DNA from: Leucoraja erinacea
Taxonomy: Eukaryota
Assembly (NCBI RefSeq): GCF_028641065.1
Contig: NC_073389.1
Span: forward strand, 14,694,001 to 14,758,000
Length of the DNA stretch: 64,000 nt
Direction: 5' to 3'
The notes beneath the pieces were generated by a model. That model made no database searches. It saw nothing but the letters and a program-made list of their open reading frames with translations, and was not told where the DNA came from. Below, piece after piece: positions 1,645 to 60,868 of the stretch (position 1 is the stretch's first letter; each line of letters begins with the position of its first letter). Both the position numbers and the translations under genes were made by a program.

Positions 1645-1745
1645 GTACAAAGTGCTGGAGTAGTTCAAAGGAATGCTGCTAGACCCACAGTTACTTCAGC
1701 ACTCTGTCTTTTTTTTTTGTTAACCAACCACTGCATGTCCTTGTG
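1645..1745. mobile_element. Degenerate Penelope pseudo-LTR (pLTR) palindrome
   Basis: acaaagtgctggagta...ttacttcagcactctgt are decayed inverted arms of the pLTR repeat. Confidence 0.55.
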
Positions 1746-1779
1746 CCCGCAATGCAAATTACTATTCATTGCTTCCCAA

Positions 1780-2110
1780 AATGAGGGGTGATCTTATGAA
1801 GGTTTCCAAAATCATGAGGATGATAGATAACATTAATACACAGTGCATTTTTTCCACGTTAGGGGAATCGGGAACTAGAGGGCATTTGTTTATGATGGGA
1901 GAGGAACGATTTAATAGGAATTTGAGGGGAACCTTTTTCACTCGGATGGTGGTGGGTGTATGGAACAAGCTGTCAAGCCACTTGGACAGAAATGTTTTAG
2001 CGGGATATGGGCCAAACGTGGGCACTTGGGACTAGCTTAGATGAGGGATCTTGGTTGGCAAGGACCAGGTGGGCCAAAGGGTCTGTTCCCTGCTGTACAC
2101 TTTATGACAC
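1780..2110 (+). mobile_element. CR1 LINE 3' fragment
   Basis: MRGDLMKVSKIMR...GESGTRGH...NLRGTFFTRMVVGVWNKL, followed by a gggccaaagggtctgtt tail. Confidence 0.85.
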
Positions 2111-3464
2111 TTAAAAGAAACGTGTGTTGATGCTCCCACCAGTTCAACTTGAACCTTGTGACATTACGGTACTATTGGGCAGCTCGAATCCGAGCGGATC
2201 AAGCCTCAGCTCTTTTGTGTTCCTCGTTCCCTAATCTCCAGCAGATGGTTTATTTCCAGCCCTCTCTGGCTTTTGGTAAAGCAGTCACGAAGGCACAAGA
2301 TCAGACTCCAATCTTTAATTTCACAGTATCCGCAACAAATGTAAGTAGCCTGGCTGTCACTTCATTGCTCTTCTGGGGGGACAATGAGGCCACGTTCTAA
2401 TTCTTTAGTCAGCAGCCCTGTCCATACATCAATTAAGCAGCCATTTGTTATGTGCAATCCCACGCAATGATAAGTAATGCTTCTTGACAGAAGGAGAAAC
2501 ATCCATCTCAGTGTTTATCAATGCAATGCAGCGAGATGCCTGTGCAGGAAGGAATGACTCTTTCTCAGGATACGGAAGCCAATTACTGAGCTGTACTGCA
2601 GCATCAGTTAAAAGTGATTAACCTGGGACACTCCTCACTGGTGTGGATTGCTATTCTAGGGGAATCTTGAGATGGAGTTGTGAGGTATTCCGGTGAGGCT
2701 AGTAGGGAACAGACTGTGATCCGATAATAGGCCAATTGGCCAAGTAGCAGACTAAAATATTTTCTGATTTTCCATGCACATTGAGACGTGCTCATCATAC
2801 AGAACCATCGGAATAAACCTTCAAGTAATGCGTTATTTGATAAGAAATAGGATTTTCTAAAACAAATAGCATTAGGTGGTCATGTAAGTGTCGTATTCTC
2901 TTAATGTGTTGAAATCCTCCCAAGGTTCAAATTTAAAATTATTTTCCATTAACTTTGGGAGGGGCGAGAGGATTTAAATGTGTGGCACATAGGCTTAGTT
3001 GGGTATCTGCTGCAGCCTTCCAGCTGCTGAACTGCCCCAGGATAATTAGTTTTGGATGGAAACACATGAAGGAGCGACACCTCCAGAGATCAGCCATCTG
3101 CTTTAAATTATTGAAAGGAAAATCTGTAACTGCAAAAGGTCAGTTGGTAGGTTACATTTTGAGGATTGCAGTCACGTTCAGCCAAGGTGATTTATACTGT
3201 ACAGTACTGATATGCCTTGGGGAGAAAAGACAGGACAGTATTTGAAATCCTTCTTCCCATCTTCCTGAATGTCAGAAATAACCCTTGAAGAAATTCATGC
3301 CTCCACCAGGTTAGCACTGGAAGCATGAGTGCCATTTACCTTTTTTTGTTATCGAGCAGGATGGATTAGTGTGTATTTTGGTTTATTTGAATTATTTTGT
3401 TGTCATCTCAGAGAGAGAGGCTGAATTTTTCTCTCGCAACCTCTGGATGTCAAAAAGATATTAA

Positions 3465-3705
3465 CGACTGAAGTGCAGTCGTTGTTGCTGTTTCAGGAAA
3501 CACTGCAGCCAATTTGTACATCGTAAAATTCCCCAAACAGTGGTGCAATAACTACTGGCTAATTCCACAGTAATGAGGCATAACATATTGACCTGGACAC
3601 TGAGGAGAACCCCATGTACACCAAGCTAGCAACGTGGGATATTTAATGTCCATCTGAGACGCTCTTAACAACTTATCCAAGTGATGCTGCATCCTGCAGT
3701 GCACC
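3465..3705 (-). mobile_element. Ancient DeuSINE (SacSINE1/AmnSINE1-like) fragment
   Basis: Colinear motifs gaagtgcagtc, aggaaacactgcagccaatttg, cccaaacag, atattgacctggacactgaggagaac and gtgggatatttaatgtccatctgag match the recalled reverse complement of the Deu-domain SINE. Confidence 0.6.
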
Positions 3706-3710
3706 ATTCA

Positions 3711-4003
3711 CTTAGTTTAGTTTGGAGATACATCACGGAAACAGGGCCTTGCTTCGACCTGCAATCCCCGTACATTACACACACTAGGGTCAATTTACAT
3801 CTTTATACCAAAGCCAATTAACCTGCAAACCTGTACATCTTTTGGAGTGTGGAGGGCAACGAAGATCTCGGAGAAAACCCACGCGGTCACGGGGAGAACG
3901 TACAAACTCCGATACAGACAACACCCGTAGTCAGGATCGAACTCGCGTTTCTGGCGCTGAAAACGCTGTAAGGCAGCAACTCCTCCGCTGCGCCACCATG
4001 CTG
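3711..4003 (-). mobile_element. tRNA-derived V-SINE (HE1-like)
   Basis: On the minus strand: A-box head ggtggcgcagcgg, B-box gagttcgatcc, V-domain-like cacactccaaaaga, and an (ctaaa)n tail. Confidence 0.85.
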
Positions 4004-4654
4004 CCAGCAAATTACTGAAATGCAATTTGAACTCCTGGCCTATTTGAACCGAGCTGTGGTTGAGACTTTGCAGCTAAATATCATCCATGTAAGGTGACAT
4101 TTGAAATTAGCGTTTATTGGCACACATTTCTCTCGCAGCAGCATAAGGCCACCACTCATTGTTCAGCTTACTGGCAGATGTTCGGAGGGGTTGTCGGCTA
4201 AAGTTCCCTTCAAGCCAGCATCTTTTTTCATTCGGGGCACAGTGAACCAGGGGACCTGTGGCATCTGTGAACTGGTTGAGCAATCCAAAGTCCATTAATC
4301 AGTCGCATTAGAACAATGCAGAGTCCCAAACCTGTCAGCGTTGAGCAGGGAATCTAAATGTATTTTTAAATAATGTGGAGAAAGAAAACCGAACAATGAT
4401 TGTTGTTCCTATGCTGCTGCAGATGGGGTTAAAAGAGAGAGAGGTGATGAGAAAGACAGGAAAAAAAAACATGTTTCTTTTGAATATGGTAAACTACTTC
4501 ACTCAGTTATTCAATTTTGCAATGTGAGTCTGTCATTGAGCATTGTACCTGCATGTTCAGCAGCACGTCCTGTCTGGGCCACCATGTTAGACTGCACAGG
4601 TGTGTCCTCCAGCAATTACTGTCACTTTCTTAAGTTTTAGCGTTTAAGACTTTA

Positions 4655-4950
4655 TTTTATTTTAGAGATACAGCGAGGAAACGGGCCCTTCAGCCCACCG
4701 AGTCCGCTGACCAGCATTCATCCTGTCCACCAACACTATCCTACACACTAGGGACTACTTACAATTATTTTTACCAAAGCCAATTAGCCTGCAAACCTGT
4801 ACATTTTTGGAGTGTGGGAGGAAACCAGAATACCCGGATAAAACCCACGTGGTCACAGGGAGAACGTCCATACTCCATGCAGACAGCACCCATAATCGTG
4901 ATTGCACCCAGATCCAAGGCGGCAGTTCTGCCACTGTGCCACCCTGCCAT
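4655..4950 (-). mobile_element. V-SINE (HE1-like)
   Basis: tagagatacagcg...ttttggagtgtgggaggaaaccaga...gacagcaccc; same family as 3711-4003. Confidence 0.85.
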
Positions 4951-5364
4951 TATGCTGATTACAAAATGATGTACAACAGCCTTTCTCCAGCTGTGTACAG
5001 AAAAATGCACAAAAAGGGACAAAAAGTTACTGTGAGGTTTCACTTCATTACATTCTCACTGAGGAAAGACCAGTTGAATGGAAACATCATCACTTCAAAG
5101 ATGTCTTGCCGTTTATGCACCATCTTGAGTTGGGAGCATCTGCTGGCCTCCACGCTAGTTCTTTCACCTCTGGGTCAATTACCAGGAGGTCCCGACAGCC
5201 CTGTGACACAGGGTTCCCACTGTGCTGGCTGCCAACAGTCTCAGGATGAGATCTCCTCCATCAGCTCTTGGAATTATTCAGTCAGTCAACACTCACTGGA
5301 ATGTACATTTTGAAGCGCTGCTGGAGTGAATGATCTACCTCACAACTGGTGAGCCTCAGACTAT

Positions 5365-5540
5365 CCTTGGTCAGACTTTTCTGGCTTTACCTTGGACTAA
5401 ACATTATTCCCTTATCATGTATCTATGAACTGTAAATGGCTCGATTGTAATCATGTGTTGTCTTTCCACTGACCGGGTCGCACGCAACAAAAGTTTTTCA
5501 CTATACCTCCGTACACGTGACAATAAACTAAACTGTAACT
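5365..5540 (+). mobile_element. LINE 3'UTR (probably Rex1/Babar)
   Basis: aaagtttttcactatacctccgtacacgtgacaataaactaaact tail; the reverse complement occurs at ~34030-34070 among Rex1 fragments. Confidence 0.5.
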
Positions 5541-6244
5541 GTAGGATCACATTCAAATAATCCTTGAAGTTGCGTGCAGAAATTAAATGAGGCAATTAAG
5601 GCTGTACACCAACTCAATGCTGCCTACACACTTAATGAAGCAGTGACCAGCCAAAACTAATCAGAGTGTTTATTTGTCAAGCACATCAGCGGGGAGCTCA
5701 GATTCGTGACTGGCTCCAGTCACTGTGAGCCTGTAGTACTTAATAGCTAACCCATGCCACTTGGATGGGAGCCACAGGCTGCTTGCTGTCAGTTATTCAG
5801 AAAGTCAGTCCAACCTAGGATCTGTTGAATAATGGATCAAAATAGGGAGAGGAAGCAAGACACGAGGCTCTGGTGCAGGAGATGTGAGGTTGGAGAGAGA
5901 TTTTATACTTGCAGGTGGGAAAAGACATCGGAGAAGTTCTCTTCCATGTCTAAATATAGAGTTACAGTATTACAACAAGAATTTCAGCAATCTTGCTGAA
6001 TAAATCTTCAAACTGCCCTGCCTTACAAACTGTAACACGAGCTTCAGTTGTGACTGAATAGACCACACACCGATCTCACACACTGCTCTCCGAATCGCAC
6101 TTCAATCACTGGGCTATCAACAAGCTCGATTAATTAAGATTCCAGATTCAAGATTCAATTTAATTGCCATGTGTACCAATAAAGGTACCGTGTAATTTGA
6201 GTTGTAGTTAATTATCATGCATGACCAACATCCATATGTTCTGT

Positions 6245-6352
6245 GTGTAGAAAGGAACTGCAGATGGACGAAGGGCCCCAACCCGAGACGTCACCCATCC
6301 TTTTTCTCCAGAGATGCTGCGTAACTCAAGCACTATGTGTCTACAGTATATT
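6245..6352. mobile_element. Penelope pLTR-derived insert with TSD
   Basis: gaagggcccaacccgagacgtcacc...ctccagagatgctgc, flanked by catatgttctgt (6233-6244) and catatggtctgt (6353-6364). Confidence 0.7.
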
Positions 6353-6469
6353 CATATGGTCTGTTTTACAATTCTGGTCTGCACGTATTGCAGGGACTGT
6401 GCACACACAGTGGTGAGGTTGTGTTGAATGCAATGCATTGCCATAAATCCTGACACTTGGCCTGTTGAG

Positions 6470-7005
6470 AATAGCAGATGCAAAGTCCAAAGGGTAGGGG
6501 AGTCGTAAACTGGAAGGCGTAGATTTATGAGGGGAACGATTTAAAAGGGACCAAAGGGGTGGCTTTTTCACACCGAGGGTGCTGCTGATATAGGACAAGC
6601 TAACAGAGGAAGCTTTAGAGGTGGGTACGAATATAATGGTCGATTGCCACTTGAACAGGGATATAGATAGAAAGATAGACACAAAATGTTGGAGTAACTC
6701 AGCGGGACAGGCAGCATTTCTGGAGAGAAGGAATGGGTAACGTTTTGGGTCAAAACCCTTCTTCAGGTCTCGACCCGAAACATCACTTCTATCCAGAGAT
6801 GCTGCCTTTCCTGCTGAGTTACTCAAGCATTTGTGTCCATCAGTTTAAACCAGCATCTGCAGTTCCTTCCTACATAGATAGAAAGTATTCTGGTCAGGAC
6901 AGGCCAAATGCAGGCAAATGGAAGTAACTCATATTGACGTTCTGGTCAGCATGGACGACTTGGGCCGAAGGGTCTGTTTCCATGTTGTAGGGCTCTACGA
7001 CTAAC
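6470..7005 (+). mobile_element. CR1 LINE 3' fragment interrupted by a pLTR palindrome
   Basis: agggtaggggagtc...tttttcacaccgagggtg...ttgggccgaagggtctgtttcc tail. Confidence 0.75.
6675..6873. mobile_element. Head-to-head Penelope pLTR palindrome with 12-bp TSD
   Basis: Inverted arms ggagtaactcagcgggacaggcagcat and atgctgcctttcctgctgagttactc. TSD atagatagaaag at 6663-6674 and 6874-6885. Confidence 0.85.
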
Positions 7006-7547
7006 TGCAAGGAATAGAAATATGGTAGACCATTCTTGAAATATCAGGTGTCAGGCGGCAGCAGGGCTTTGATTGTATGCGGAGTAAAACCAACCACGTT
7101 GTGAGTGGATGCATTTTTCACTCTATAACCACCCTTTGATTTGCACAGGAGTGTTCGATGCAGTTGGTGCAAACGGTCTGTGGCAAGACAATTCCTGTCA
7201 CACCAGGCTTCGGCCTGCTTGGCCTGTTGCTCGTCATCTTTGTGGAAAGTCACAGGGCTGGAATGGTTCTGCACTAAGGAAGAGATGGTGATGTATGGAG
7301 GTTATTGTCGTGGGTAGCACTGGGATCTGAAGTCTTGCCTCACATGCACATCTCGTATGTGTATGTGACAAATAAACTTGACTTGACAATGCAGGAGAGA
7401 AGAATGAAATCTAGTGAAGGGCTGCCAGTCCAACATTTTGTTGGAGTGGAAGTTCCCTTTGTGTGACTACTTTTAACGTGGGATTGTCGCTGCACATATA
7501 GGTCCAATTGCCTGTGAGGTCTTGCACAGTGGCAGGTAGATGTGGAC

Positions 7548-9837: not shown

Positions 9838-10122
9838 GTGTTAGAAAGCATTGTAGATGCTAGTTTATACTGAAGATAGAACTCAGTAATTTCTGGAGAC
9901 AAGGAATGGATGACGTTTTGAGTCGAGACCCTTCTTCAGACTGAGAGTCAGGGGAAAGGGAAACGAGAATTATGATGGAGAGAGATATAGAACAAATGAA
10001 TGAAAGATATGCAATAAAGTAACGATGATAAAGGAATATGGGCATCATTAGCGTTTTGCTAGGTGAGAACGGGAACTCATTGCGACATGTGGGGGAGGGA
10101 CGGAGAGAGTGGGAGAGCATGG
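9838..10122 (-). mobile_element. Penelope pLTR/3'UTR insert with 13-bp TSD
   Basis: tgacgttttgagtcgagacccttcttcagactgagagtcagggg; TSD aataactagcttt at 9825-9837 and 10123-10135. Confidence 0.85.
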
Positions 10123-11842: not shown

Positions 11843-11922
11843 CAAAGGGTCTCAACCTGAAACATCACCGACTCCTTCTCTCCAGAGATGCTGGAGTTAC
11901 TCCAGCAGTTAGTGTCTATCTT
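11843..11922 (+). mobile_element. Penelope pLTR fragment
   Basis: aagggtctcaacctgaaacatcacc...ctctccagagatgctggagttactccagc. Confidence 0.75.
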
Positions 11923-12327
11923 TGACAAGCACAAGCCTGGCAACTTGACTTGAGCCCAATGAGATTTGCTAAACGTATTAGATTTGGGTTGGAAATCCTC
12001 GGACTTAGCTTGGGTTTTGTTTGACTCTGGTTGGGTCATGTGTTAGTTTAAATTTGATCAGTTGTCTACGATACGCTCTGTGACCAAGTGATGCCACATG
12101 CTCCTCACATTCTGTTTGGTAGTTTGTTTCTACATCTAGCCAAATACATTTGTCCTGTGTTTGACTTTGATTGAGCGGAAATTGCTAATCTGTCTCCTTC
12201 ATCCAACAAATTCTTGACATTAAATGACAGGGTGTACCATGAAATGTATGCAAGCGGTGCTAAAGGGTGGAATTGATGTCGGTGATTAGAACCAGTTAGG
12301 AAGAACTATTCAACATTGGGATTGAGA

Positions 12328-12655
12328 ATGTGTGGGAAAGAAGGAAATACGGATGTTGGTTTAAACACAAAAAGCTGGAGTCACTTAGCGGGTCAGGCAG
12401 CATCTCTGGAGAAAAGGAATAGGTGATGTTTCGGGTCGAGACCCTTCTTCAGACTGAGTCAGGGGAAAAGGGAAATGAGAGGTATAGATGGTGATGTAGA
12501 GAGAGAATGATGAATGCAAAAAAGTAATGATGATAAAGGAACCAGGCCATTGTTAGCTGTGGTAGACAAAAATGCTGGAGAAACTCAGCGGGTGAAGCAG
12601 CGTCTATGGAACGAAGGAATAGATGATGTTTTAGCCTGAAGAAGGGTCTGAAGAA
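12328..12655 (-). mobile_element. Two Penelope pLTR copies (two subfamilies)
   Basis: gctggagtcacttagcgggtcaggcagcatctctggag...gtttcgggtcgagacccttcttcagact, then gtagacaaaaatgctggagaaactcagcggg. Confidence 0.8.
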
Positions 12656-15400: not shown

Positions 15401-15411
15401 AGATGATTTTG

Positions 15412-15650
15412 GGAGATCTCCCAGTTGCCAAACACTTTAATTCCCCTTCCCATTCCCACACTGACATTTCTGTCCTAGGCCTTCTCCATTGTCATAGTGA
15501 GGCCCAATGCAAATTATAGGAACAACAACTCGTATTTTGTTTGGGCATCTTACAACCCAGTGGTATGAACATTGATTTCTCTAACTTCAAGTAACCCTTG
15601 CATTCCCCCTCTCTCCATCCTTTCCCCACCCAAGTCGCACCAGGTTTAAA
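15412..15650 (+). mobile_element. Penelope GIY-YIG C-terminus/3' end
   Basis: DLPVAKHFNSPSHSHTDISVLGLLHCHSEAQCKL*EQQLVFCLGILQPSGMNIDFSNFK*; matches the end of the element at the window start. Confidence 0.88.
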
Positions 15651-16170: not shown

Positions 16171-17059
16171 TGGCTCCTCAACTGTGTTTCTTTGGCCATT
16201 ACACCGAGGACTTCAGCAGAGAGGTAATGTGTAAAGCATCGTGAATGACTATCAACCAGATGGTTTTGCAAGCTCAGGCTTTTGTCTCTTTACTGAACAA
16301 TGTTCCCATAAAATATCTGCAGCACTGTAAAGTAGGTTTGACTGGAGATTGAAGTGCACCTTAAAAGCTTTGTGATAGAATCGATAGCAAACAGTCATTG
16401 CGCATTTAATTTGGGACTGTCAAGGAAACGATGGAGTCCCTGCGTTCATAAGGTGGTAGTGGCGGTGGTCATGGTGGTTGGTGTGCTTCATGGCTGGTCA
16501 GAGATAAGCACTTTGTGCGAGGGAGGGGAAGATTGGGGTCTGGGTTTTGTGGATCAGAGCAATTGCGGGGGAAATATTGTGCAGCGGTTTGGGCAGCTTG
16601 AAATGGAGCAGTAATTAATCAGACGTGGGAGAGAAGCATTATTCAAATGTGCTCGCTCTGTAAGTGTCCACAGCAGACATTACTTAGAGCAATGTACATT
16701 CATTTCCTTGGCATAGCTCCAACAGTAGCATTACATGATGAATGACATCATTCCACACACGAGTGGTGTGGAAACTGTGTCAGGTGCATAAAAGAGGATC
16801 TGCAACTGCAGATGACCAATGAAATATCTGGGGTGGCCTGACTCGACCTGGAAGTGGTTGTAATTTGGTCCAGGTCCCGAGAGCATGGCAACGACAAAAG
16901 GCAGAAGCAAATTTAAATAAAAATTAAATGTTGAAATCAGTCTGCCACTGACATTTCACAATGGAAAATCATCCTTGCCTACATTCCTGCAAACCCGAAG
17001 AGGAATCCGACCTATAGTATTTGGAGCAACACTCACTGAAGGAGACTAATATATTCATC

Positions 17060-17350
17060 AGCCTGAAGAAGGGGGCTACCCGAAACGTCACCTATCTGTG
17101 CTCTCCAGAGAAACTGCCTGACCTGATGAGTTACTCCAACACTTTTTTGTAAACTAGCATCTGCAGTTCCTTGTATCTCCTTTTTTGCTGCACTCCTCAA
17201 TCTATGCCCACTTTGAAGTTCTCCATTAAGCCTGAAAAAGGGTCCTGATACTGGACATCACCTATCCAAGTTCTTCAGAAATACTCCAGTTACTCCAGCA
17301 CGTGTGTCTTTTTTTTGTAAACCAGCATCTAAAGTTCCTTGCATCTCACA
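17060..17350 (+). mobile_element. Two same-orientation Penelope pLTR copies
   Basis: gcctgaagaaggg...gaaacgtcacctatc at 17061, and gcctgaaaaagggtcc...catcacctatcc at 17230. Confidence 0.8.
17063..17089 (+). ncRNA. Minimal hammerhead ribozyme core (PLE-type)
   Basis: CUGAAGA-A-GGG(GGCUA)CCC-GAAA-C-GUC with all conserved core nucleotides present. Stem I is weak, so activity is uncertain. Confidence 0.6.
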
Positions 17351-21500: not shown

Positions 21501-21572
21501 ATCAATTGTTTACAGCTTTGAATGCATGAGATCACTGTTGATCTGGAGCTTGCCAGCACCCGAGGTGGCCCA

Positions 21573-23754: not shown

Positions 23755-23957
23755 TGTGCAGGGAGGAACTGCAGATGCTGGTTCAAACTGAAGACAGACA
23801 CAAAAAGCTGGAGTAAATCAGTGGGTCAGGCAGTATATCTGGAGAAAATAAATAGGTGACGTTTCGGGTCAAGATCCTTCTTCAGAATTCAGGTCTGAAG
23901 AAGGGTCTCAACCCAATAACGTCACCTATTCCTTGTCTCCAGAGATGCTGCCTGACC
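23755..23957. mobile_element. Head-to-head pLTR palindrome with two hammerhead-like cores
   Basis: ...gacgtttcgggtcaagatccttcttcaga|attcag|gtctgaagaagggtctcaaccc... Degenerate TSD cactggcaatgatta (23740-23754) and cactgccactgatta (23958-23972). Confidence 0.85.
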
Positions 23958-26020: not shown

Positions 26021-27654
26021 TAATTACTATGTTACTACGGCTGGACAAGAAGAGTCATAAAGTAAATGAGCAACTGCAGTTTCCAAAAATTAGCAAACAA
26101 AATCCCCACAAGTAATCTGATCAACGCACTGAAATCCAATACAAATCACCATGGGCAGAACAGACCGTACAATCCTGACAAGAGCACAAACTCAATCCAT
26201 GGAGACATCGATTGATTGAATATATTCTTCAAGCTGATCTGTGCGCTAGATGTTGAAGTGATAGGAACAGAAAATGCTTGAAACGCACGCTAAGTCAGGC
26301 AGCATCTGTAGGGAGAAGAACAGGGTCATGATGTCCTCTCAGCAACTTTTCATCAGAAGCATATGATGATGTTTCTCTGTTCCAAGATGCAGCCTGCATT
26401 GTGTCTGTGCTTTCCATTGGTTCATCAGGATTCCAGTAGTTATTTGGTGAAGGGAAATGATTTTGTTATTAAGCTGTTGACCAATATGTTCTGTTGGTAT
26501 GCTCGCCACTGTAACGGGCTGAAATGTATTTACCTTTGACTAGTGGTTCTCTTCACAGAGCACAACCACTGCAGAATAATGCTCAACGCACTCAGTATCT
26601 CTACTCATACACTTTGGTGATGGGATCGAGACGTTAATACCAGGTTGCATCAGAGCACTGTTTGACGTTGACCAAACCCCAGAGTTTCCTCATTTATGTA
26701 TCATTATACATGGAAATGGATTAGCAACATTTTAGCGATTTGGGTTTAAAGGTTTCAGGTCAGTTTATTGTCACGTACCAATTGAGGTACTAGATGTATC
26801 GCAAGAGTGGAAATCTATACTCTGTAATGCCGAACTTTCAAGTCGGTACTTTTGATTATCGATCAGCATTCCATTCCACATTGGAAACAAATTTACAGAC
26901 CATTTATTTCGATGTTTATTTCCAATGGAACTTAGGACAAGAAACTAAGATTTGACAAAAAAAAAACAGATAGGCGATGAAGTGTTTGGAATGCACTTGT
27001 AACTAGGTTCATTAAAAATATTTTATGCAACACTTAGTTTGAGTGCTAATGAAATGCCTGATGAATAATAACGCACAGGAAAAATATTAAGTAGTAACTC
27101 CAGTTAAGCAGCAACTTTCTTCAGTCTCTTATCATTTAAAAAAATAATTTAAAGTCTCTATTGTTATTCAATTGCAATAAACGCTTGATCGCAGCGTTCA
27201 AATGTGTTTGTGATTATTAGCTTGAGTCAGACCATAATCTGGAAAGAAGATTTTTTTAAATTTGAAATATCTTCATTTAAATCTGGTGTAAAGATTGCAG
27301 ACAAAGCAAAATATTAAACTGCAGTTTAAACTTAAACCAAACTCAGCAACCCGCCCCAATAAACAAGATTTCATTACACAGCTCTCCACTGTAATTTGAA
27401 TGCTAAACACATAAAAACCCATTTAGAAGTTTTTGTTAAGTGTTTAGCATTCAAGGGAAGAAGAACATGGCTTTGTTTTTAATTTCTGGTTTGTAATTAA
27501 TTAAGCAATAACAGCTGCTGTGTTTTGTCACTTCCTTCAGCTGTGTTAATGAATTATTTCGAAAATTAAAATCCCCTTTATTTCTTCCCATTGAGCTTTC
27601 AGCTCTGCAAGGGATATTTCAGGAACCGGGTTGAAATTGGCCTTGCTTGTGGTG

Positions 27655-28047
27655 GATAGACACAAAAAGCTGTAGTAACTCAGCGGGTCAGTCGGCATTT
27701 CTGAAGAAAAGGACTAGATGACGTTTCGGGTCGAGACCTTTCTTCAGACTGAGAGTCATGGGAAAGGGAAATGAGAGATATAGAAGGTGATGTAGAGAGA
27801 TGAGGAACAAATGTATGAAGGATATGCAAAAAATAATGAAACAGGCCATTGTTAGCTGTGTGCTGGGTGAAAATGAGTGCAGACAATGAAACTCAACAAG
27901 ATGACTGAAGCTGGTACGACTTGGGTGGGGAATGGGATGGAGAGAGAGAGAGAGAGAGAGGATGCAAGGGTTACTTGAAGTTAGAGAAATGAAAATTCAT
28001 ACCACTGGGTTGTAAGCTGCCCAAGCGAAATATGAGGTGCTGTTCCT
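27655..28047 (-). mobile_element. Penelope 3' end (GIY-YIG C-terminus, 3'UTR, hammerhead-bearing pLTR)
   Basis: Minus-strand EQHLIFRLGSLQPSGMN-like stretch at ~27990-28047 is continuous with ctgaagaaaggtctcgacccgaaacgtc (minus, ~27720-27748). This links the pLTR repeat physically to Penelope. Confidence 0.88.
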
Positions 28048-28949: not shown

Positions 28950-29345
28950 ACTGATGGTTCAGGTTCCATCTGCCAGTCATCTCTCTTGATAGTTCCATAT
29001 TTTCTTCCTTAATTATCACATTCCAACATGAGTTGCCTTTACGTCCCTGTTTATTATCCTCCAGTTTCATCCCACTTTCTCCCTCCCCTCCATCTACCTG
29101 GCCCCATCTGCCTCTTTTTCCAAGTGTGTCTGCTTCCACCGATTACCCACCTGCCTCTCACATCCCTCTCCCCTCCTCAGTCCATCTATGACCTACCAGT
29201 CCCATCCTCACTCCTCCCTCTCTTTTACCTACCCTCTTTGCTCACAATCCCGATGCAGTGTTTCAAGCTGAAACATCAACAATTCCTTTCCTCTCCATCA
29301 AGGATGCTTGATCCATTAAGCTCCTCCAGCAGTTTGTTTTTCTCC
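28950..29345 (+). mobile_element. Old Penelope-like 3'UTR/pLTR
   Basis: C/T-rich UTR ending cccgatgcagtgtttcaagctgaaacatc...ggatgcttgatccattaagctcctccagcagtttg, a decayed pLTR. Confidence 0.45.
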
Positions 29346-30069
29346 ACAGATCGAGCAAATCTACATCAATCAACGTGAACATACAAGGGAGAATCACTGG
29401 CTAGAGAGCCTCAGATTGTCAAAGTGCGCTGCTTTATACACAGTTGAGACCAGGAAAGGAGGTGTTTGTTGCTTCAACCAGACCCTGCCCTTAGGATATC
29501 TGTGACCGATGGTTTTCATCCATCTCGCCCACTTTCATCCTTTTCTCCCAATTCTCGCGGCAGCAAAGCAATGAACATCCAATGTGTCTGAAATCTATGT
29601 ATCAATGTCCTTGGGCTGCCTGTTGCAGTTTAAACAACCAGCACTGAGTTAATGACTTCCCTGTTCCCAGCCTTTGACACTCTTATTTTTATTACGTATC
29701 CCTGTGGACTTTGCCAACAGTGTTATAACAATGCAGAGCAAACTTGTAAATTGCAGCTTATCACTAGTTGACTTATATAACTAACTCACATAATGGGTGA
29801 TTTTACAGACACAAAACGTCTTACACGATCATGATATCATAGAACAAGCATATTAGAGCTTGGTGCTTGAGGTTCCTATGTTTCTCCAGATCTACCTCCT
29901 CACCAACCTACACCCAAGAACTATATCTAGCACAAACAGCATACTAATGTTGAAATCCAGTACAATGATGAAAAGCTACGGGGGTGTTGGGGATATGGGG
30001 CCAATTAAATCAGTACAGAAGGTGCTATTGAAGTGGAGGAAACTGTCGGTGTTTGAGGAAGACACGTTG

Positions 30070-35602: not shown

Positions 35603-35802
35603 AGAAACAAGGAGCTGCAAATGCTTGGTTAATATTCAAAATGTTACAAAGTGCTGGAGTAACTCAGTAGGTCAGGCAGCATCTCTGCAGAACATGGATA
35701 GGTGACATTTTGGGTTGTGGTCCTTCTTCAGCCAGTCTGAAGAAATATCATCTTTCCATGTTTGCCAGAGTTGCTGCCTGACCTGCTGAAGTTTTGTCCT
35801 TT
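35603..35802. mobile_element. pLTR palindrome with perfect 12-bp TSD
   Basis: ...tccttcttcagccagtctgaagaa...; TSD tgaagatatttt at 35591-35602 and 35803-35814. Confidence 0.85.
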
Positions 35803-36755: not shown

Positions 36756-37347
36756 CATAAAGGGAAAAAAGCTAAGACTTTTATCAGCAGGAAAATAAAA
36801 CAGCCCCAACCCGCATAGTGCAAATTTAGGATGAAGTGATGATGAAGATATTCATCAAATATTTTCCCTTAGGTTCTGTATTTGATAACAAGGATGCTTC
36901 TTTGTGAATAGATGTGCAAGATTCAGTTCTGGCGATAAATAATCAAATTAAGAACATTAAAATCGTCAATAAATCTAAGGCTGTAAAGATCATCCTGAAT
37001 GATGTACGTTGCAGAATGTAAAATAAATTGATGAGGGTAAGTGGAGGCTGCAACTGTGGAAGATTGTCTCCACTAATCGGGTGTAATCAGTGTGGATCTG
37101 TGAAGGATTTCTCTGCACTACTTTGCAGTGACTGCACTAGCTATGACTCAGTTCATGAGCTCGGAATGCCTTGCTCTGTCATCAGAAATAAGGTCAATCC
37201 TGGCCTTTGCAACTGAAATATAATTCCTGAGCAAATCATAAGCTATCTTGATAACAGCTATGCATATCTTGTGCAGCAGAAGGACAAGTGACCAGAAGAA
37301 TGCAATTTGAGAAGCCAAAAATAGAAAAAAAGCAAAGATTTATTTTT

Positions 37348-37522
37348 GTAGGAAGGAACTGCAGATGCTGGTTTAAACCGACGATAGACACAAAAAGCTG
37401 GAGTAACTCAGCGGGCCAGGCAGCATCTCTGGAGAGAAGGAATGGGCGACATTTTAGGTTGAGATCCTTCTACAGCCCCTTTTTCTGAAGAAGGATGTCC
37501 ATCCGAAACGTCACCCAGTCCT
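37348..37522. mobile_element. pLTR palindrome (short right arm) with degenerate 14-bp TSD
   Basis: Full left arm, right arm limited to the hammerhead core. Flanks aaagatttattttt (37334-37347) and aaagacgtattttt (37523-37536). Confidence 0.85.
37485..37512 (+). ncRNA. Minimal hammerhead ribozyme core with compensatory stem II
   Basis: CUGAAGA-A-GGAUG-UC-CAUCC-GAAA-C-GUC. The 5-bp stem II is perfect and differs from the family consensus GGGUC/GACCC at two paired positions. Confidence 0.7.
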
Positions 37523-44680: not shown

Positions 44681-45192
44681 TACTGTGATTCAACAAATGC
44701 ACATTCTAAATTAGGGTGGTGGAAACGGTTGTGAACTATGAGTCTACTCCTGAATCTGCTGACACTTGACTTTCTGCCGCTGATCATCCTGATTCAACGT
44801 GCCCATCCTTCAGTGTTCCCATGCCAATTGGAAATAGCGCAGGTAATTTAAGATGAAATGGGGGAAGCTCACTCATGTCTGTATTTGATAGTTTGGAAAT
44901 ACTAGTTGCTGACAGGTTGGAATCATCTTTGGTTCCCAGCAGAGCCATATCGCTGTTGGCGTAAGTAACCAGACTTCTCTGGAATCTATTATTCCTGTTA
45001 AGGTTTTGACTCTCAAATGGATTCTCATAAGCTCTGAACCAGCCTGAGTTCTTCGAAGGTCTTTCAAGCTGCATTAAGAAAGGGACATCCTGGAAAAAAA
45101 AGCTCCGTTAATTGGTGTTTCTCTGAATGCCTCAGTTTTGAAAAGATCCATTGATCAGAAAGGGATTAGATACCAGATGTACCAAAATAATA

Positions 45193-45293
45193 GGTAGACA
45201 AAATTGCTGGAGAAACTCAGCAGGTACAGCAGCATCTATGGAGCGAAGAAAATAGGCAATGTTTCGGGCCGAAACCCATCTTCAGACTCAATC
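45193..45293 (-). mobile_element. Solo 101-bp pLTR (second subfamily) with perfect 15-bp TSD
   Basis: Minus strand ctgaaga-t-gggtt-tc-ggccc-gaaa-catt. TSD tgtaccaaaataata at 45178-45192 and 45294-45308. Confidence 0.85.
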
Positions 45294-47102: not shown

Positions 47103-47240
47103 CTATGAAACAAGGAATCCAGATGCTGATTTGCTACAAAAAAAAGATACAAAATGCTGGAGTAACCCAGAGGGTCGGGCCGCATCTCTGGAGAACGTGG
47201 ATAGATGACGCTTCGAGTCGGGACCCTTCTTCAGGCTGGG
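47103..47240 (-). mobile_element. Penelope pLTR copy
   Basis: gctggagtaacccag...gatgacgcttcgagtcgggacccttcttcagg. Confidence 0.78.
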
Positions 47241-48744: not shown

Positions 48745-49109
48745 TCAATTCTCATTTACTTTACATAATTTATTTGCAGCTTCTAACATTTTCCCAAAAC
48801 ATATTGGGGTCAGTCACGGCAAAAATATATTTTCAATGACGTAAAGTGGAATATAGCATGTGCATGTATTTTATTTGTATCTGAGAAGAAATTGTGGAAT
48901 CAGTGCAGAGATAGAATTGTGAAAGTTCTTGAAGAGCTTGTTCTGCATTGATAACTTGATGAGGCGAGACATCGGATATTTCTGAATGCCATCGCTTTCG
49001 CATAGATTTTTCTTTTCCAATTTGCATAGTTTGGCCAGCTGGTCATGTCACACAATCTTACTCTAAGCAACCCGTCAAACAGGCAAAGAAATACCAAGAG
49101 TCCCGAAAA

Positions 49110-49610
49110 TAGGCACATAATGCTGGAGTAACTCAGCGGGATAGGAAGCATCTCTGGAGAGAAGGAAAGGGTGACGTTTCGGATCGAGACACTTCTTCAG
49201 TCTTCACTCTTTCTCTCCAGTGATGCTGCCTGTCCCACTGAATTATTCCAGCTTTTTATGTCTATCTTCGGTTTATACCAGCATCTGCAGTTCCTTCCAA
49301 TACGTCCTGATCTGAAACATCATCTATCCATGTTCTTCAGAGATGCTGCCTGACCCACTGAGTTACTCCAGCACTTTGTGTCCTTTTTTAAAATTAAACC
49401 AGCATATGCAATTCCTTGTATCCTCTGTGTTTATCCTACTGCTACGTTTACTCATTTGCTCTTGCCCTATTAGATACATTTCCTTTCTTCTGCCCCCTTT
49501 TCTGCTGCTGAAAACTAACTTGTTTTCTCATTTACCCAGTTCTGTTGAAAGGTCCCCGATCTGAAACATTGCCCCTTTCCTGACCTGCTGAGTTTTCAGC
49601 AATTTCAATT
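49110..49610. mobile_element. Cluster of pLTR copies (one palindrome plus two same-orientation copies)
   Basis: gtgacgtttcggatcgagacacttcttcag (minus-strand core), then repeated tgaaacatca...gatgctgcctgacccactgagttactccagc. Confidence 0.8.
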
Positions 49611-50815: not shown

Positions 50816-51154
50816 TGCTTGACCAGTTGATAGATGCACAACAGTCTATATGGTGATCTCCTGTGGAATTCTTTTCAGACTTTACTTGTTCTGGAAGAAT
50901 TTTTAATCTAAGGCTGACCAAAGGCTGGATTTTGTTTATTTTGAATTGTAAGCTTAAAAAACATCTGATGCAATGTTGGCTTTGCCCGAGAAGAGAACAA
51001 TGTATTTCCCTCTCCATTCCCTCCCCCCCCACCACCTACTTTCCAGGGCTCAACCTCATTTGAAGGTGCAACAATTTCCTGCAGGTAATCGTGTAATTAA
51101 CTTATCCAGCTATTCAGCCCATTTTTCCCCTCTCCTGCCCTCAATTACTTTGGG

Positions 51155-51395
51155 TGGAGTCAGGGGAGAGGGAAACTAGAGATATGGAGTGGTAAGGTGT
51201 GAAAACGACAGATCAAAGGAGACAATGACCAAGGAATTGCAGTATGGTTCATTGTTGGCTGAGGTGACAACGTTGCATAGAAACATAAAAAAAAAAGATT
51301 CAGGAGGACAGTGAAACTAGTCGGAGAACTGGGATGGGGAGGGATGGAGATAGAGGGAAAGCAAGGGTTACGAAGTTAGATCAATATTCATACAA
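51155..51395 (-). mobile_element. Penelope 3'UTR fragment
   Basis: gagtcaggggagaggg...agcaagggttacgaagttagatcaatattcatac matches the 27750-28000 region. Confidence 0.7.
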
Positions 51396-52669
51396 GCAGA
51401 GGCTGTATGAGCCTCACTGAGGCTCAAATGACAATAAATGGTATTGTATTGTATTGTTTGGAAATATGGAGCCCATTATCTGAGTGGGTGGTGGAGGCTG
51501 AGATTCTCACAACATCTAAGGACATTTTATCGGGACAAGCAATTTGATCAGCAAGATATAAAAGGCTATGAGCCAGTACTGGAAATAGGGATTAGCATAG
51601 GTTGATTCCCAATAGTCGCCATGGACATGGTGGGGTGAAGAGCCTGTATCTCCGACGTATAACTTTAAAACTCGACAATTTGTAGCATGAAGCAGCAAGT
51701 ATAATGTCCTAATTTATGCTCATGTTAGCAATCATTTATGATTGGTAACATGAAAAGCAAATGAAGAATAAGTTTGATGTGAAAAAACTTTTGGCAATTT
51801 CTATAGGTTAACTGGAGTAAATCTGAATCAACCTTGATATATCAGTGGAGTCCTTTATTCGGTGACGAACCATTACATTTGCAGTTTGGAAAATTCAAGT
51901 TATTTTTTTCTTCCAATATTCTGATCTGCATATCAAAAATAACAAGAGGAAGTTAATTTCATTCCCTTTATACTGGTCATCCTGAGCTGGCTGTATGAAT
52001 TTCCTTTGTTCCCTTCCTTTCTGTGGATCATTTGAGAGCTGGATTTCACTCATCATGTTCGTGCTTGGGTTCTTCTCTTTGAACCATTGAATTGCCCTTA
52101 ACTAAAATGAATGTTCTAGGCTGATATCTCATATCAATCCTGCACTTTCACTTGAGGAAGCCATGCCCCATTTCAAGTGTGTTTATCCCTTGCTCCAAAG
52201 CTATATTATTCCAATAATCCTGATGCGCCTTATTTTTAAGTGCTGCAAATTGCACCTCTGGTGCTCAGTAGGTTCGAATTTGTCACATCTGTAATTACAT
52301 GTTTCTTGTGAGCTATCCAATTATTTCATTCATCATTTACCGTGTATCAACAAAAGTTTAAGCGGTCTAAGTGATAAACAAGGAGCTATTGTGTTATTCC
52401 AAAATAACAAAGAAATACACGAGACACCACAAGTTGTAATTAGTTTGCTTCAACAGCCCCTGTGGCAGTTTCACAAGGGACATCACAGAGTGAAAATTGC
52501 TAGTTAATGAATACACAGTTAAATACAAATTGAGAAGGCCTTTTGGCCTCTGGTAATTTATCTATCCAATGAAGAACCCACTGATCTGCCCACCATAACA
52601 ACCTATTCCTTCAATGTTTCTGGAGTTTAAGGTCCATTATCATTACCTTTATCACAAGTGTCTTGCGTC

Positions 52670-54730: not shown

Positions 54731-55459
54731 CTGTCCCTACTGGTTCAATACCATGACAGTAAACTCTACATGCAGGTCCTCACAGAATCACACGGGTCCA
54801 GTTATATTATATGGCTGACATGCGGACATCATCAAGGATTTCTGCCAAGTTTCAAGATTTATTTGCGGAGATGAGAGTGGATGCCAGTGCTAGCGAACAT
54901 ACAGCACTGGAACAGGCCCTACGGCCCACAATATCTTGCCGATCATGATGCCAAGCTCAACTAATGTTATCTACCTGCATATGATCCATATCCCTCCATT
55001 CCCTGCACATCTAAAAGCCTCTTAAATGCTACTTAGCACAAATTCAGAACATGAAAGAGAGTGAACATCGATTTCCAGGCATTGGTTTCTTTGGCAATTA
55101 CCTTTAAAAAAGAAAAGGTGTCGATGGGACTGTGATGTATCCCCAAGAGAGCAGGCGCTGTAGTTTGGTGTTTCATCTCAAAGTTGTCTTCTTCAACAGT
55201 GCAGTGAGCCATTAAAGTTCCACTTGGTGTGTCAGCCGAGATAAAGTGAACCCAGAGTCTATTATAGTCACAGTTAGCGCACGTACATTTCATAGAATTT
55301 TGCAGTTTCTTGCCTGAGTCCCAGAAGGGTATTGTTTGGAATCTTTTCAACTGTTCAGTTGTCCTTTCAAGAAAGGTTGATTTATCTGACAAAGAATTTG
55401 GCTTTCACTCCAGCAGAGTTTCCCTCCTCAAGACAGTGTAGTAGACCATTGCATGGCTG

Positions 55460-55687
55460 ATAGAGACGAAATGCTGGAGTAACTCAGCGGGACAAGCAGC
55501 AGCTCTGGAGAGCAGGAATGGGTGACGTTTTGGGTCGAGACCCTACTTCAGAACTCTCTGGAGAAAGGTCTCGACCCGAAATGTTACCCATTCCTTCTCT
55601 CCAGAGATGCTGCCTGTCCTGCTGAATTATTCCAGCAGTTTGTGTCTATCTTCAATTTAAACTCCCATCTGCAGTTCTTTCCTACAC
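55460..55687. mobile_element. pLTR palindrome
   Basis: gctggagtaactcagcgggac...gacgttttgggtcgagaccctacttcag | aggtctcgacccgaaatgttaccc...catctgcagttctttcctaca. Confidence 0.85.
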
Positions 55688-57115: not shown

Positions 57116-57254
57116 AAAACTTTACAGATAATGGATTTCCTGAGCGAAGAGGGGTGTGCACAACACATTTATATCAGTGGGACGTTAAAGTTAAAGCACA
57201 AATTGCCTCGTCATGCCTTCGCAACCATCATGTATTTCTCAGAATAAACTCTTA

Positions 57255-57648
57255 AGGACCAGTCCCACCAGCATGCGCCTGCATGCGGCAAGCGCGACCT
57301 AACCAGAAGCGGGGGCCGCGCGGAGTTCGAGTGAGTGACATGAAGTGCGATCGAAGTCCACGGGAAGTTCGCGCATGACGTACAGCGTCGAGGTGGCTGG
57401 GGGCTGGCGGGCCATTGTCACGCAGAATTTTTGAACACGGTCAGTTTTTCGGAGCCTCGCGCGATGCCGGGACCAACTCCACACAACTCCATACGGCTCC
57501 GGCGAGCGAAGTGGGACCGGCCCCGCGAGGCCATACGGCTCAAGCGACCACGTTAGGTTACTCTTGCCGCATGCAGGCGCATGCTGGTGGGACAGGCCCT
57601 TTAGGTCACACTTGCCGCATGGAGTCGCATGCCCATGGGACAAGCCCT
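57255..57648. mobile_element. MITE, Harbinger-like, TTA TSD, with an extra tandem right TIR
   Basis: TTA|aggaccagtcccaccagcatgcgcctgcatgcggcaag...cttgccgcatgcaggcgcatgctggtgggacaggccct|TTA (ends 57600). A second, degenerate right TIR occupies 57601-57648. Confidence 0.85.
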
Positions 57649-58261
57649 TAACACATAGCAAATGCATAGATTAATTGGCTTCTGTAAAATGCCTACATGC
57701 CTTTAACATGTAAAGGATGTTAGTGGACTAGAACATGTAAAGTGGGCTAGAAAGTGGCATTACATAGAAATAGTGTTGTTGTGGACTGAGTAGGCCGCAT
57801 GTTTCCATAGTGTGTCTTCAAACTAAACTAAGCTTTATGCATTCCTCAGTTATCTCCATCAACTGCAAGCTAGCCTGTTTCCTCCACAACTGGGCTCCTG
57901 TGTAGCCCTTCCATGTTTTAGGATGTCTTGATCTCACTTAGAATTCTGCATCTCAAATCCTTCGGCACTGTTCCCAAAGGACCCTCCTAATTGCTGCTTT
58001 AACGTACGTCTGTTTTCCTCGTGACCCGTGAAGCATGCAACAACAATCTGTTCTCCGTAAATTCAAATGTAAATCAGTTCAAATTTATTGTGTTAACATT
58101 GGGTCCAATCAAGGTGACTGATAGCTGATGGTTCTTGAGGTTATCAGCCACTCAGGCTTCTGAGTGTGTGGTGAAACTCAGGGAGTTGATCAGATGTCAT
58201 GTGGAGATAGGAACTGCAACACATTGTATTGTATTGTATTGTATTTTAATGACCACACAGC

Positions 58262-58345
58262 CAGGCTCGACCCAAAACATCACCTATTCCTTTTCTCCAG
58301 AGATGCTGCCTGTCCCGCTGAGTTACTCCAGCTTTTTGTGTCTGC
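58262..58345 (+). mobile_element. pLTR fragment
   Basis: ctcgacccaaaacatcacctattccttttctccagagatgctgcctgtcccgctgagttactccagc. Confidence 0.8.
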
Positions 58346-58589
58346 GATCAGATGTTATTGTCTATTCTGGTGCAGACTCACTGCTGAACCCCAAGGTGGA
58401 GCAGTTACGTTTTTGTCTTTACTTCAATGTATAATTTATTTGTGATAAATGTAAAAATATGCATGACAGAAATATTGTCATCATTTTCACAGCAAGTCAT
58501 GCTATTCCCATTGCTTAATATTAGCACACCATCAATTATCTTTCATTCACATTTCATTTACAAACTTAAAGGAACTAAATATAGCAAAA

Positions 58590-58910: not shown

Positions 58911-59019
58911 GAGAGTTCATAGGATCCTATTGCAGATTTCAATTAATTTGTGCTCAATGGCAGGGTCACTTTTCCCACTGAGATTGGTACTTGCTGCTCT
59001 CCCTCAGCCTTTCCCTTGC

Positions 59020-59500
59020 TTAGAGTTGGACAGTACAAACTGGGCCCTTTGGCTGTTCACATCCACACTGACCTTTTTGTCCTACATTAATCACATTTGC
59101 CTGCAGCAAGACAGTATTTCACGTCACCTTGTCTGTTTAAGTGTCTGCCTAAATGCTTCTTAAACAAAGTGATTGTATCCAAATTCACCACACTTTCAGA
59201 CGGTGAGTTCTAGATCAACCATTTTCTCTGCATATAGATCTTTCCGCTCAAATCCCCTTTAAAACCCCTTCCTCTCATTTTGAGAATACTCTCGAGTTTT
59301 TGTGACCTCTTTTATAGGATCCCTACCATAGTCTTGGACTTTAAACTATGCCGGTTTGACCACAGGAGTGGTTTCCCTGCAGCTGTTAATTTTTTGACTC
59401 CCTTTGAGATCTATTTCTCGACCCGAAACTTCACCCATTCCTTCTCTCCAGAGACGCTGCCTGTTCCGCTGAGTTACTCCAGCTTTTTGTGTCTATCTTT
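59020..59500. mobile_element. CR1 3' fragment (minus) followed by a pLTR fragment (plus, ~59415-59500)
   Basis: tctgtttaagtgtctgcctaaatg...ctttaaactatgcc; then ctcgacccgaaacttcacccattccttctctccagaga. Confidence 0.65.
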
Positions 59501-59979
59501 GTCTCTTTGCTTTCCGGACTGTTCCCCGGTATACCCATGGAGTCCTCCGTTAGGCAGCTGTTCAGGACAAATGTCATCAAATACCTCCGCAAATTCTCCC
59601 AGAGCTTCCTGCCAAAGACTCACTGAACAGAAAGGCTGGATTCACTTTGCATTCAGCCCCACCACTTTAATCAGAAGAGGGCTGATGTTGGAATGGCAAT
59701 TAAACAGATAAGAAAGGGATAGATTGCCCTGTGGTAAAAGTTACGTTAAATGCTCTTTGCCTTCATATTACTTTCAAACGGACATGTGTTTCACTGTGCT
59801 TATAATTACTTTTATTTTAGTTTTTTTTAATTTTAATTTAAATGATTTAAATCAATTTTAATAGCTTGTTAAATTCTTCGCAAACCTTTGCCAGTCAGCG
59901 AGCTGCCTGATGCGGAAAGCCTGCTCACCATTTGCAACCCACAGCTCCCCATGATGGTGCAGGGGTCAGTTCACCTGGC

Positions 59980-60158
59980 AAGGTAGACACAAAAAGCTGG
60001 AGTAACTCAGCGGGACAGGCAGCATCTCTGGAAAAAAAGTTTCGGGTCGAGACCCTTCTTGGGTCCTTCTCTCCAGAGATGCTGCCTGTCCTGCTGAGTT
60101 ACTCCAGCTTTTTGTGTCTATCTTTGTTTTTAAATCAGCATTTGCAGTTCCTTCTTAC
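59980..60158. mobile_element. pLTR palindrome with perfect 14-bp TSD
   Basis: Near-perfect inverted arms (tagacacaaaaagctggagtaactcagc / gctgagttactccagctttttgtgtcta). TSD tcagttcacctggc at 59966-59979 and 60159-60172. Confidence 0.9.
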
Positions 60159-60344
60159 TCAGTTCACCTGGCCTTCTGCATTAGGCGAATGGTGGCAGTG
60201 TGTGACAAGCCCGGTTCCAGACTATTCAGCTCATGGTTGCCATCAAATCTTCTTCAAAGTGGTGCATTTCCAATTTTAAGAATCCTTCAATTATATATTT
60301 ACAATGGATAAAAATTAAACAACAAATGTAACCTCTGCAGATGC

Positions 60345-60578
60345 TGTTTTGTATGAGACGGCTGATGGGGTGGAAGGTGAGGACAATGGGGGACTTTGTC
60401 CTTGTTACGAGGAGGGGGATGGGGAGTGAGAGCGGAGCTGCGGGATATAGAGGAGACCCTGGTGAGAGCCTCATCTATAATAGCAGAGGGGAACCCACTT
60501 TTCCGAAAGAATAAGGTCATCTCCGATGCCCTGGTCTGGAACACCTCATCCTGGGTGCAGATGCGGCGTAGACGGATG
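60345..60578 (-). mobile_element. Penelope RT/linker fragment
   Basis: RLRRICTQDEVFQTRASEMTLFFRKSGFPSAIIDEALTRVS; homologous to ~430-670. Confidence 0.88.
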
Positions 60579-60685
60579 CGTAAATGTAACCTCTGCAAGT
60601 TACTTATCTAATCTCAGTGTTGTGCAGGTGGTAAACGTAATTCCATATATATACATATGCAGCTGTAGGAAAGGCATAAAGGGCC

Positions 60686-60868
60686 GGAGTAACTCAGCGG
60701 ATCTGGCAGCATCACTGGAGAACGTGGATTTGTGGCGTTTCAGGAAGGGTCCCGACTCGAAACATCACCTATCCATCTTGTCCAAGATGCTGCCTGTCCC
60801 ACTGAGTTACTCCAGCATTTTGTGTCTTTCCTTGGTCAACCATCATCTGCAGTTCATCGTTTCTATAG
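60686..60868. mobile_element. pLTR palindrome
   Basis: ggagtaactcagcggatctggcagcatc...gaagggtcccgactcgaaacatcacc...gagttactccagc. Confidence 0.78.

Follow-up and report, generated by a model that had tools for sequence, protein, structure and literature searches.

A terminal repeat with a predicted minimal hammerhead ribozyme, probably of a Neptune-type Penelope-like element, in the genome of Leucoraja erinacea

Introduction

Minimal hammerhead ribozymes are known from the terminal repeats of Penelope-like elements (PLEs), and a repeat of this kind is dispersed over the DNA analysed here, a stretch of 64,000 nucleotides (nt) from Leucoraja erinacea (contig NC_073389.1, positions 14,694,001 to 14,758,000; hereafter the window). 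The repeat consensus, in which the C of the CUGA box is numbered 0 and the predicted cut lies directly 3' of +27, contains the core boxes CUGANGA and GAAA and an NUH site (GUC). It shares with the minimal PLE hammerheads of Cervera and de la Pena (2014; PMC4209133) the type I core, the extra base after A9 (between positions 9 and 10.1), the G10.1-C11.1 pair, a palindromic 15.2/16.2 element without loop 3, the location in a pseudo-long terminal repeat (pseudo-LTR or pLTR), the prevalence of dispersed single copies and the presence of opposite-strand neighbours. Stem II has 4-5 bp; stem I has 2 bp, as in D. virilis, versus 4-5 bp in Schistosoma (PMC4209133). The number of copies extrapolated here, around 10^6, compares with 4,000-9,000 motifs in coelacanth and Xenopus, obtained by another counting method (PMC4209133), and no cartilaginous fish is named in the excerpts of that paper or of two supplements.

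Three further systems are close. Poseidon_Ac of Anolis (Frangieh et al. 2024; PMC11167929) also has a pair of 3' ends downstream of the ribozyme, 30-40 nt from each other and the long one AC-rich, an RNA template that is not cut and no reads ending at the cleavage site. It differs from the present element, which has a Neptune-type linker and an open reading frame (ORF) beginning downstream of the tail instead of within stem II, and of which no active copy was found, in a survey that included no exhaustive search. The Penelope element of Adineta and other PLEs with an endonuclease (EN+ PLEs; PMC3846280, PMC8557442) share the head-to-head inverted pLTR, a tail at one end, a short target duplication and an initiator-like word. 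Here, unlike there, the insertion is often just two pLTR ends (~200 bp), the duplications measure 9-21 bp instead of 8-10 bp, and the asymmetry has been counted over many copies. Finally, non-LTR retrozymes (10.64898/2026.07.22.740005) are likewise PLE-derived and non-coding, and a 66-nt offshoot described below is, like them, a tandem pLTR derivative; however, each retrozyme unit holds a whole hammerhead, whereas the copies in the window occur dispersed or inverted, and the 5' half is missing from the 66-nt unit. The literature searched holds no description of this family in cartilaginous fish or of the 66-nt arrays, which Repbase/Dfam, subscription papers or supplements (those on retrozymes include one chondrichthyan) may contain. 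The class of ribozyme-bearing PLEs is already known, and the repeat is ordinary in kind.

The parent element and its copies

The repeat is very probably the pseudo-LTR, or terminal part, of a Penelope-like retrotransposon of Neptune type that amplified in several old waves and is now decaying. The order of the element is hammerhead, tail, ORF start, reverse transcriptase (RT), zinc-finger-like linker, GIY-YIG endonuclease (EN), 3' untranslated region (UTR), hammerhead and tail. Genomic copies are broken, and the single RT+EN ORF was pieced together from several loci; at the 5' end of the element the ribozyme and tail run straight into it, with the ATG at +165. Extended upstream through other copies, the copy at 27654-28047 (minus strand) yields first the GIY-YIG domain and then a C-x4-C-x2-C linker, the RT core and a DKG motif; one locus (L031) spans RT, EN and ribozyme. 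The GIY-YIG C-terminus that had been described as continuous with this copy is indeed joined to it, 9 of 22 residues of the piece P0002 being identical to the last residues of an RT+GIY-YIG homologue. The EN alignment has an E value of 1e-9; Pfam searches of the short EN pieces P0001 and P0002 and of locus L029 gave no match. The RT piece matches RVT_1 of Pfam weakly (E=6e-5, below the curated cut-off), and at E<=1e-30 it has 163 matches to longer proteins, of which the best with a name comes from a bamboo shark (65-66% identity). The closest protein matches come from bamboo shark, cnidarians, echinoderms and molluscs, and the homologues carry RVT_1 and GIY-YIG. Upstream of the RT core the DKG motif reads ADKGG in L082, and C-x4-C-x2-C lies between RT and EN in the translations of L013, L015 and L029. 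A CX2-5CxxC linker is the motif of the Neptune clade, and Nematis also has a linker (PMC8557442). The layout is that of an EN+ PLE, of Neptune type as judged by the linker motif, and pseudo-LTRs, partial tandems, an inverted 5' copy, an optional tail of 30-40 bp and target duplications are all present.

Copies were searched with a seed (27646-28050) that retrieved 31 pieces of the window, and then with an iterated profile, for which reversed sequence served as control. The profile located 32 copies of the terminal segment (arms) at 21 loci between 1670 and 60858, and none in the control. The original prediction of about 20 dispersed copies is thus borne out; when arms are counted, the density is about one per 2 kb instead of the one per 3 kb given there. 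The arms also returned the same consensus as had been reconstructed, GT-CTGAAGA-A-GGGTC-TC-GACCC-GAAA-C-GTC-ACC. In a genome sample of 60 fixed 10-kb stretches of the assembly (G000, contigs C1-C35; 600 kb), 291 arms were found (0.49 per kb; 4.5% of the sampled bases; reversed control 0), which extrapolates to about 10^6 arms in 2.19 Gb if the sample is representative. The arm density of the window is like that of the sample; therefore the window is typical of the genome and nothing special. Exact matches to the 33-nt ribozyme consensus number 8,339 in the assembly (control 0). Taken together, the continuity with RT and EN, the consensus and the copy counts support the proposed identity, an abundant Penelope-like family with a minimal hammerhead.

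A six-class mixture, fitted to 284 of the 323 arms (32 from the window and 291 sampled), separates subfamilies with divergences of 7.6-25% at non-CpG sites. No young or intact autonomous copy was met, no exhaustive search for one having been made. Only 18 of the 32 window arms span the whole ribozyme, and CpG decay, already ascribed to most copies, has hit 13 of these 18 (10 of them at the two sites originally named). Half of the window arms (16/32) are halves of head-to-head palindromes, a feature absent from the original prediction.

Insertion ends and the template RNA

Most insertions are stubs that extend from 3 nt before the core to about +85-95 or +123-131. The 5' ends cluster just before the core: among 64 single copies chosen for unique, non-pyrimidine flanks, 50, 47 and 43 agree with the consensus at -1, -2 and -3, and 25 and 22 at -4 and -5. 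Singles bounded by target duplications start at -2 to 0, several of them with 1-6 unmatched bases, as would be expected from an RT running off the end of its template. Among the ORF-bearing copies that retain the ribozyme, 5 of 8 start, as read from the alignment, either within about -3 to 0 or at the junction of a palindrome, and not in the upstream UTR. At the other end, 11 of 47 short singles have their own target duplications versus 3 of 200 controls, hence +90 is a real end. At the cleavage site no excess of 5' ends is seen, with 7 at +26..+30 for 11.4 expected, and cleavage as the source of the 5' edge was accordingly rejected. Since the copies start 3 nt before CUGA and not at the cleavage site, the ends suggest that templates, and the ribozyme in them, were mostly left uncut.

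We propose, as the probable course of events, that the RNA of the element would start at the A of an initiator-like TCA(+1)GT directly before CUGA and would be copied without being cut, RT starting at either of two internal positions that lie downstream of the ribozyme. Such a start on the 5' copy within the RNA would yield a stub of 90-130 nt. TCAGT resembles the initiator (Inr) consensus. An Inr-like TCACT is present in a rotifer pLTR (PMC3846280), and the anole Poseidon element is reported to have two RT start sites of the internal kind, to nick both strands and to use uncut RNA as substrate, with a dimer model proposed for it (PMC11167929).

Several observations count against this proposal. 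Among 121 singles that reach the core, 48 continue into shared upstream sequence, and the 5' pile is in part artificial, caused by upstream UTRs that have diverged in other subfamilies. The putative start is not marked by a pile of RNA reads at the threshold given below. Moreover, the pyrimidine tract and CAG before the core resemble a splice acceptor, and the Penelope element of D. virilis has one at the same spot (PMC4209133; PMC2377424), so that a splice acceptor remains a rival. As the source of the 5' edge splicing is not favoured, because the short copies retain A-3 and G-2 and have no common upstream exon. A second NUH site just before -3 was rejected on inspection, as neither stem I nor stem III could form.

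Four raw-read RNA runs from standard libraries were compared with a representative copy (L027:2250-2800) at 82% likeness. The repeat was found in 0.28-1.09% of the reads in all four, the two directions being about equal over the ribozyme, and 51-96% of the repeat reads run on into unlike flanks. Loose read ends occur at -4, -3 and -2; no pile of read starts or ends was detected anywhere in the four runs, the cleavage site included, with a threshold of a fifth of the local depth that rare cleavage or a rare true start would escape. The RNA signal fits passive read-through of embedded copies.

Head-to-head palindromes

About one third of the copies lie in head-to-head palindromes. Among the 323 arms there are 57 head-to-head, 16 direct and 5 tail-to-tail neighbour pairs, where chance would give about 2. 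Target duplications of 9-21 bp bound 19 of the 57 palindromes versus 1 of 150 controls, and in 17 of these 19 a long arm (+123 to +131) is joined to a short one (+39 to +94; p=0.0004). The two arms belong to the same subfamily in 39 of 44 cases (27% expected) and are 84.7% identical, compared with 82.6% for random copies of one subfamily (p=0.004). The centre is a self-complementary word at the ribozyme 5' edge in 11 palindromes, stem II in 3 and other sequence in 43.

The inverted pLTR anatomy has been published before (PMC3846280, PMC8557442). For its origin we lean towards twin priming, in which both nicked target strands would be primed, one at each RT start site, and the two cDNA ends would anneal through self-complementary parts of the ribozyme. 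This is preferred because the anole element has two start sites, extension on both strands and a dimer model (PMC11167929). It is weakened by the fact that only 14 of the 57 centres share a clean self-complementary word. A close rival, to which we give tentative credit, is fold-back: a single cDNA or antisense template would prime itself, and the short end would mark the place of resolution, a scheme put forward for rotifer Penelope. Arms that are more alike than random members of the subfamily and nearly always of one subfamily would follow from it, as would a sharp long end with a short end spread from +39 to +94, and the structure has been interpreted in this way (PMC3846280, PMC8557442). 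However, the short singles with their own target duplications make +85-95 an independent end, and the commonest clean centre (11/57) has a 1-nt spacer, which would fit two annealed ends better than a hairpin.

A tandem derivative and the short forms

Outside the window, a back-joint from +85 to +20 present in all four RNA runs led to a 66-nt genomic tandem unit that corresponds to +20 to +85 of the arm and whose junction has 18,764 exact matches in the assembly (control 0). Since the joint exists in genomic DNA, the reads are no sign of an RNA circle, as which it had first been taken. The unit is devoid of the CUGA box and stem II, the 5' half of the ribozyme, and keeps the tail hairpin, better paired. 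Arrays were examined at the first loci listed on contigs C1 and C2, not at random (L125 and L127-L155; for example G000:C2:25386759-25387289). The average distance of 52 internal units from one consensus is 2.5% (30 loci), which makes the units much younger than the arms, inside which they sit in register. In 17 of 32 arrays a ribozyme box of greater age and 17% divergence stands in front (control 6/300), 17 of 32 continue into arm sequence, and some hosts are of other subfamilies. Of the top-scoring arrays 21 of 27 lie within 5 Mb of a contig end (C1-C35). At L037, L054, L127 and L136 the arm and its 66-nt units share several hundred bases of flank on both sides, and so are carried along within some other repeat or a duplicated segment.

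One junction and one unit in different hosts imply spread between loci and not local slippage. Gene conversion among subtelomeric repeats is typical of minisatellites, and the more likely explanation is that the unit is a minisatellite which ectopic gene conversion has spread near chromosome ends. It is unlikely, if conceivable, that the unit is an RNA parasite of the Penelope machinery, multimeric or circular RNA being reverse-transcribed into homologous old arms; alternating variants in some arrays indicate a template of at least 2 units. Were this so, it would be homing without a ribozyme or new target sites, and a ribozyme-less counterpart of retrozymes. Identity with the non-LTR retrozymes themselves was rejected on three grounds: the 16 direct neighbours among 323 arms, the 66-nt arrays without the 5' half, and the lack, in window and sample together, of any pair of intact copies on one strand within 1 kb.

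Another explanation of the short forms is that the short unit or the palindrome is a self-standing non-autonomous element, similar to a SINE or MITE, with masters of its own and an inherited 5' edge. Short forms do far outnumber coding forms, with a sharp 5' edge and target duplications. Nevertheless, palindrome centres vary from copy to copy, full-length ORF-bearing copies have the same 5' edge and the edge recurs across subfamilies, and we hold this explanation to be improbable.

The ribozyme and its possible targets

A strict rule counts a copy as intact if it keeps the 11 core bases and all stems. Of the 176 arms that span the motif, the core bases are preserved in 70, and in 26 of these all stems as well. 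These 26 belong to the 291 sampled arms, none to the window; 8 are in palindromes and 18 outside them. Core sites have decayed at 79 of 1401 positions (5.6%) and tail sites at 317 of 4456 (7.1%; p=0.06), a comparison in which ascertainment favours the core. The copies decay neutrally. Changes in stems I and II between subfamilies are one-sided wobbles only, and 89% of cells pair. Stem I had been given as 2-4 bp: 2 bp stand, and in 105 of about 120 copies the next position has A opposite C. The consensus segment +47..+54 has two possible partners, +75..+83 and, with perfect pairing, +105..+112 of the optional tail, so that long and short forms may fold differently, with no covariation to decide.

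The hammerhead interpretation has to face several results. A scan of the window with Rfam models returned no hammerhead family at E<=5; the other 8 matches at this limit are palindrome or chance artefacts. Covariation in 30 low-divergence copies of five subfamilies is no better than in shuffles, 135 of 500 of which reach the score. RNAalifold retains stem II only, and the predicted probability of stem I in the consensus RNA is near zero. Among five subfamily consensuses, the oldest class of 12 being left out, 1 of 13 core positions is variable versus 18 of 66 tail positions (p=0.17), so that the conservation test named in the original prediction gives no significant difference.

Published minimal hammerheads show no activity as monomers and only weak activity as dimers (PMC4209133); dimer cleavage by minimal motifs is on record (PMC4209133; PMC6765202, citing Lunse et al. 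2016), and cleavage failed in 8 of 9 Xenopus dimers (10.64898/2026.07.22.740005). A dimer would need two intact same-strand copies close together. The predicted ribozyme would most likely act like other metazoan minimal hammerheads, weakly, as a dimer or with the protein of the element, on the tandem RNA of the element itself and not on host transcripts. That the motif is instead a non-catalytic DNA or RNA signal, such as a promoter or a protein-binding site, its hammerhead likeness being a relic or a coincidence, would agree with the lack of covariation and of an Rfam match and with uncut templates; we judge it quite improbable, given that all diagnostic features of a minimal hammerhead occur at the expected place in the pseudo-LTR and that the subfamily changes in stems I and II are compatible with wobble pairing. 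Least credible of all, despite the 8,339 exact consensus ribozymes, the intact sampled arms and the presence of the repeat in every RNA run, is a reservoir of live ribozymes cutting the host transcripts that run through copies, against which stand the 0 of 32 intact window arms, the missing same-strand pairs, the neutral decay, read directions that are about equal with no end pile at the cleavage site (rare cuts would escape the threshold) and the published behaviour of monomers and dimers cited above. The five window palindromes that were folded in both directions form hairpins of -72 to -150 kcal/mol with the core buried. The suggestion that the repeat could affect any transcript crossing the region is not supported, in view of the absence of intact window arms, the 26 intact among 291 sampled arms, the missing same-strand pairs, the neutral decay, the buried cores and the lack of a read-end pile.

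Other features of the window

The copy at 27654..28047 (minus) is 5'-truncated and comprises the GIY-YIG C-terminus (about 27971-28048), the 3' UTR, the minimal hammerhead (core start 27747, cleavage-site C 27720, first stem II pair broken) and the tail to +93. Palindromes with target duplications lie at 6675..6873 (left arm short, +91; right arm long, +127; 12 bp), 23755..23957 (arms long, +130, and short, +61; 15 bp), 35603..35802 (12 bp) and 59980..60158 (short arm +94, long arm +127; exact, 14 bp). In the palindrome at 37346..37522 the right arm has an intact core, a variant but fully paired stem II and 1 bp of stem I; this stem II (37484-37522) contains two pairing-preserving double changes, which could reflect hairpin-templated repair instead of selection. 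At 49102..49419 a palindrome (49102-49302) is followed by a direct third arm (49304-49419), the near-complete palindrome at 55452..55686 folds with about -150 kcal/mol, and an older one occupies 60653..60858.

Among the remaining arms, 45187..45288 (minus) is a single short unit from -2 to +90 with an exact 15-bp target duplication and a few unmatched bases at the 5' junction, and 11845..11927 (plus) is a single 5'-truncated unit with a 14-bp duplication. A 5'-truncated copy at 9840..10122 (minus) has a partial 3' UTR, hammerhead and long tail. Two arms of different subfamilies form a partial tandem at 12338..12635 (minus), and two direct arms separated by 52 nt lie at 17059..17342 (plus), with the core intact in the first and not in the second. 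Single arms on the plus strand are 1670..1744 (tail only), 6261..6352 (mutated core), 29251..29351 (old), 58264..58351 and 59416..59500 (both 5'-truncated); on the minus strand, 26250..26355 is of the oldest subfamily and 47109..47238 has a long tail. Remnants of the same element comprise coding sequence at 29..1056 (minus; from the RT C-terminal part onward) and 60345..60576 (minus; RT C-terminal region, adjoining the last palindrome), the EN C-terminus with the start of the 3' UTR and no hammerhead at 15415..15648 (plus), and 3' UTR at 51148..51396 (minus).

On inspection, the 38 open frames of at least 110 amino acids in the window resemble repeat pieces or low-complexity sequence; open frames at 12652-13503, 13667-14458, 19410-20018 and 34223-34585 resemble fragments of LINE reverse transcriptases. 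A second abundant repeat (families D9, D10, D13 and D17-D19) occurs at 3705-4924, 8290-8565, 21448-21844, 22679-22926, 31586, 38732, 54575 and other sites, with one pair inverted and 21465-21611 also belonging to it; it resembles the 3' terminus of a CR1-type LINE or of the SINE derived from one. Other inverted-repeat elements of 300-400 bp, MITE-like and several with a common terminal word, are found at 18429-18763, 20413-20733, 48502-48749 and 57251-57651, and a CT-rich tandem array with units of 12-14 nt at 7500-8060.

Biological implications

The known association of hammerhead ribozymes with PLEs is extended here to a genome of the cartilaginous-fish type, with no change of concept, and a role in the cleavage of host transcripts is unsupported. 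The 66-nt offshoot provides a testable case of a repeat invading homologous old copies of a transposon. With about a million insertions whose ends can be counted, the family constitutes a fossil record that bears on the role of the Penelope hammerhead. The insertion ends argue that the ribozyme does not define the template's 5' end and that the inverted structure is assembled from two distinct start sites.

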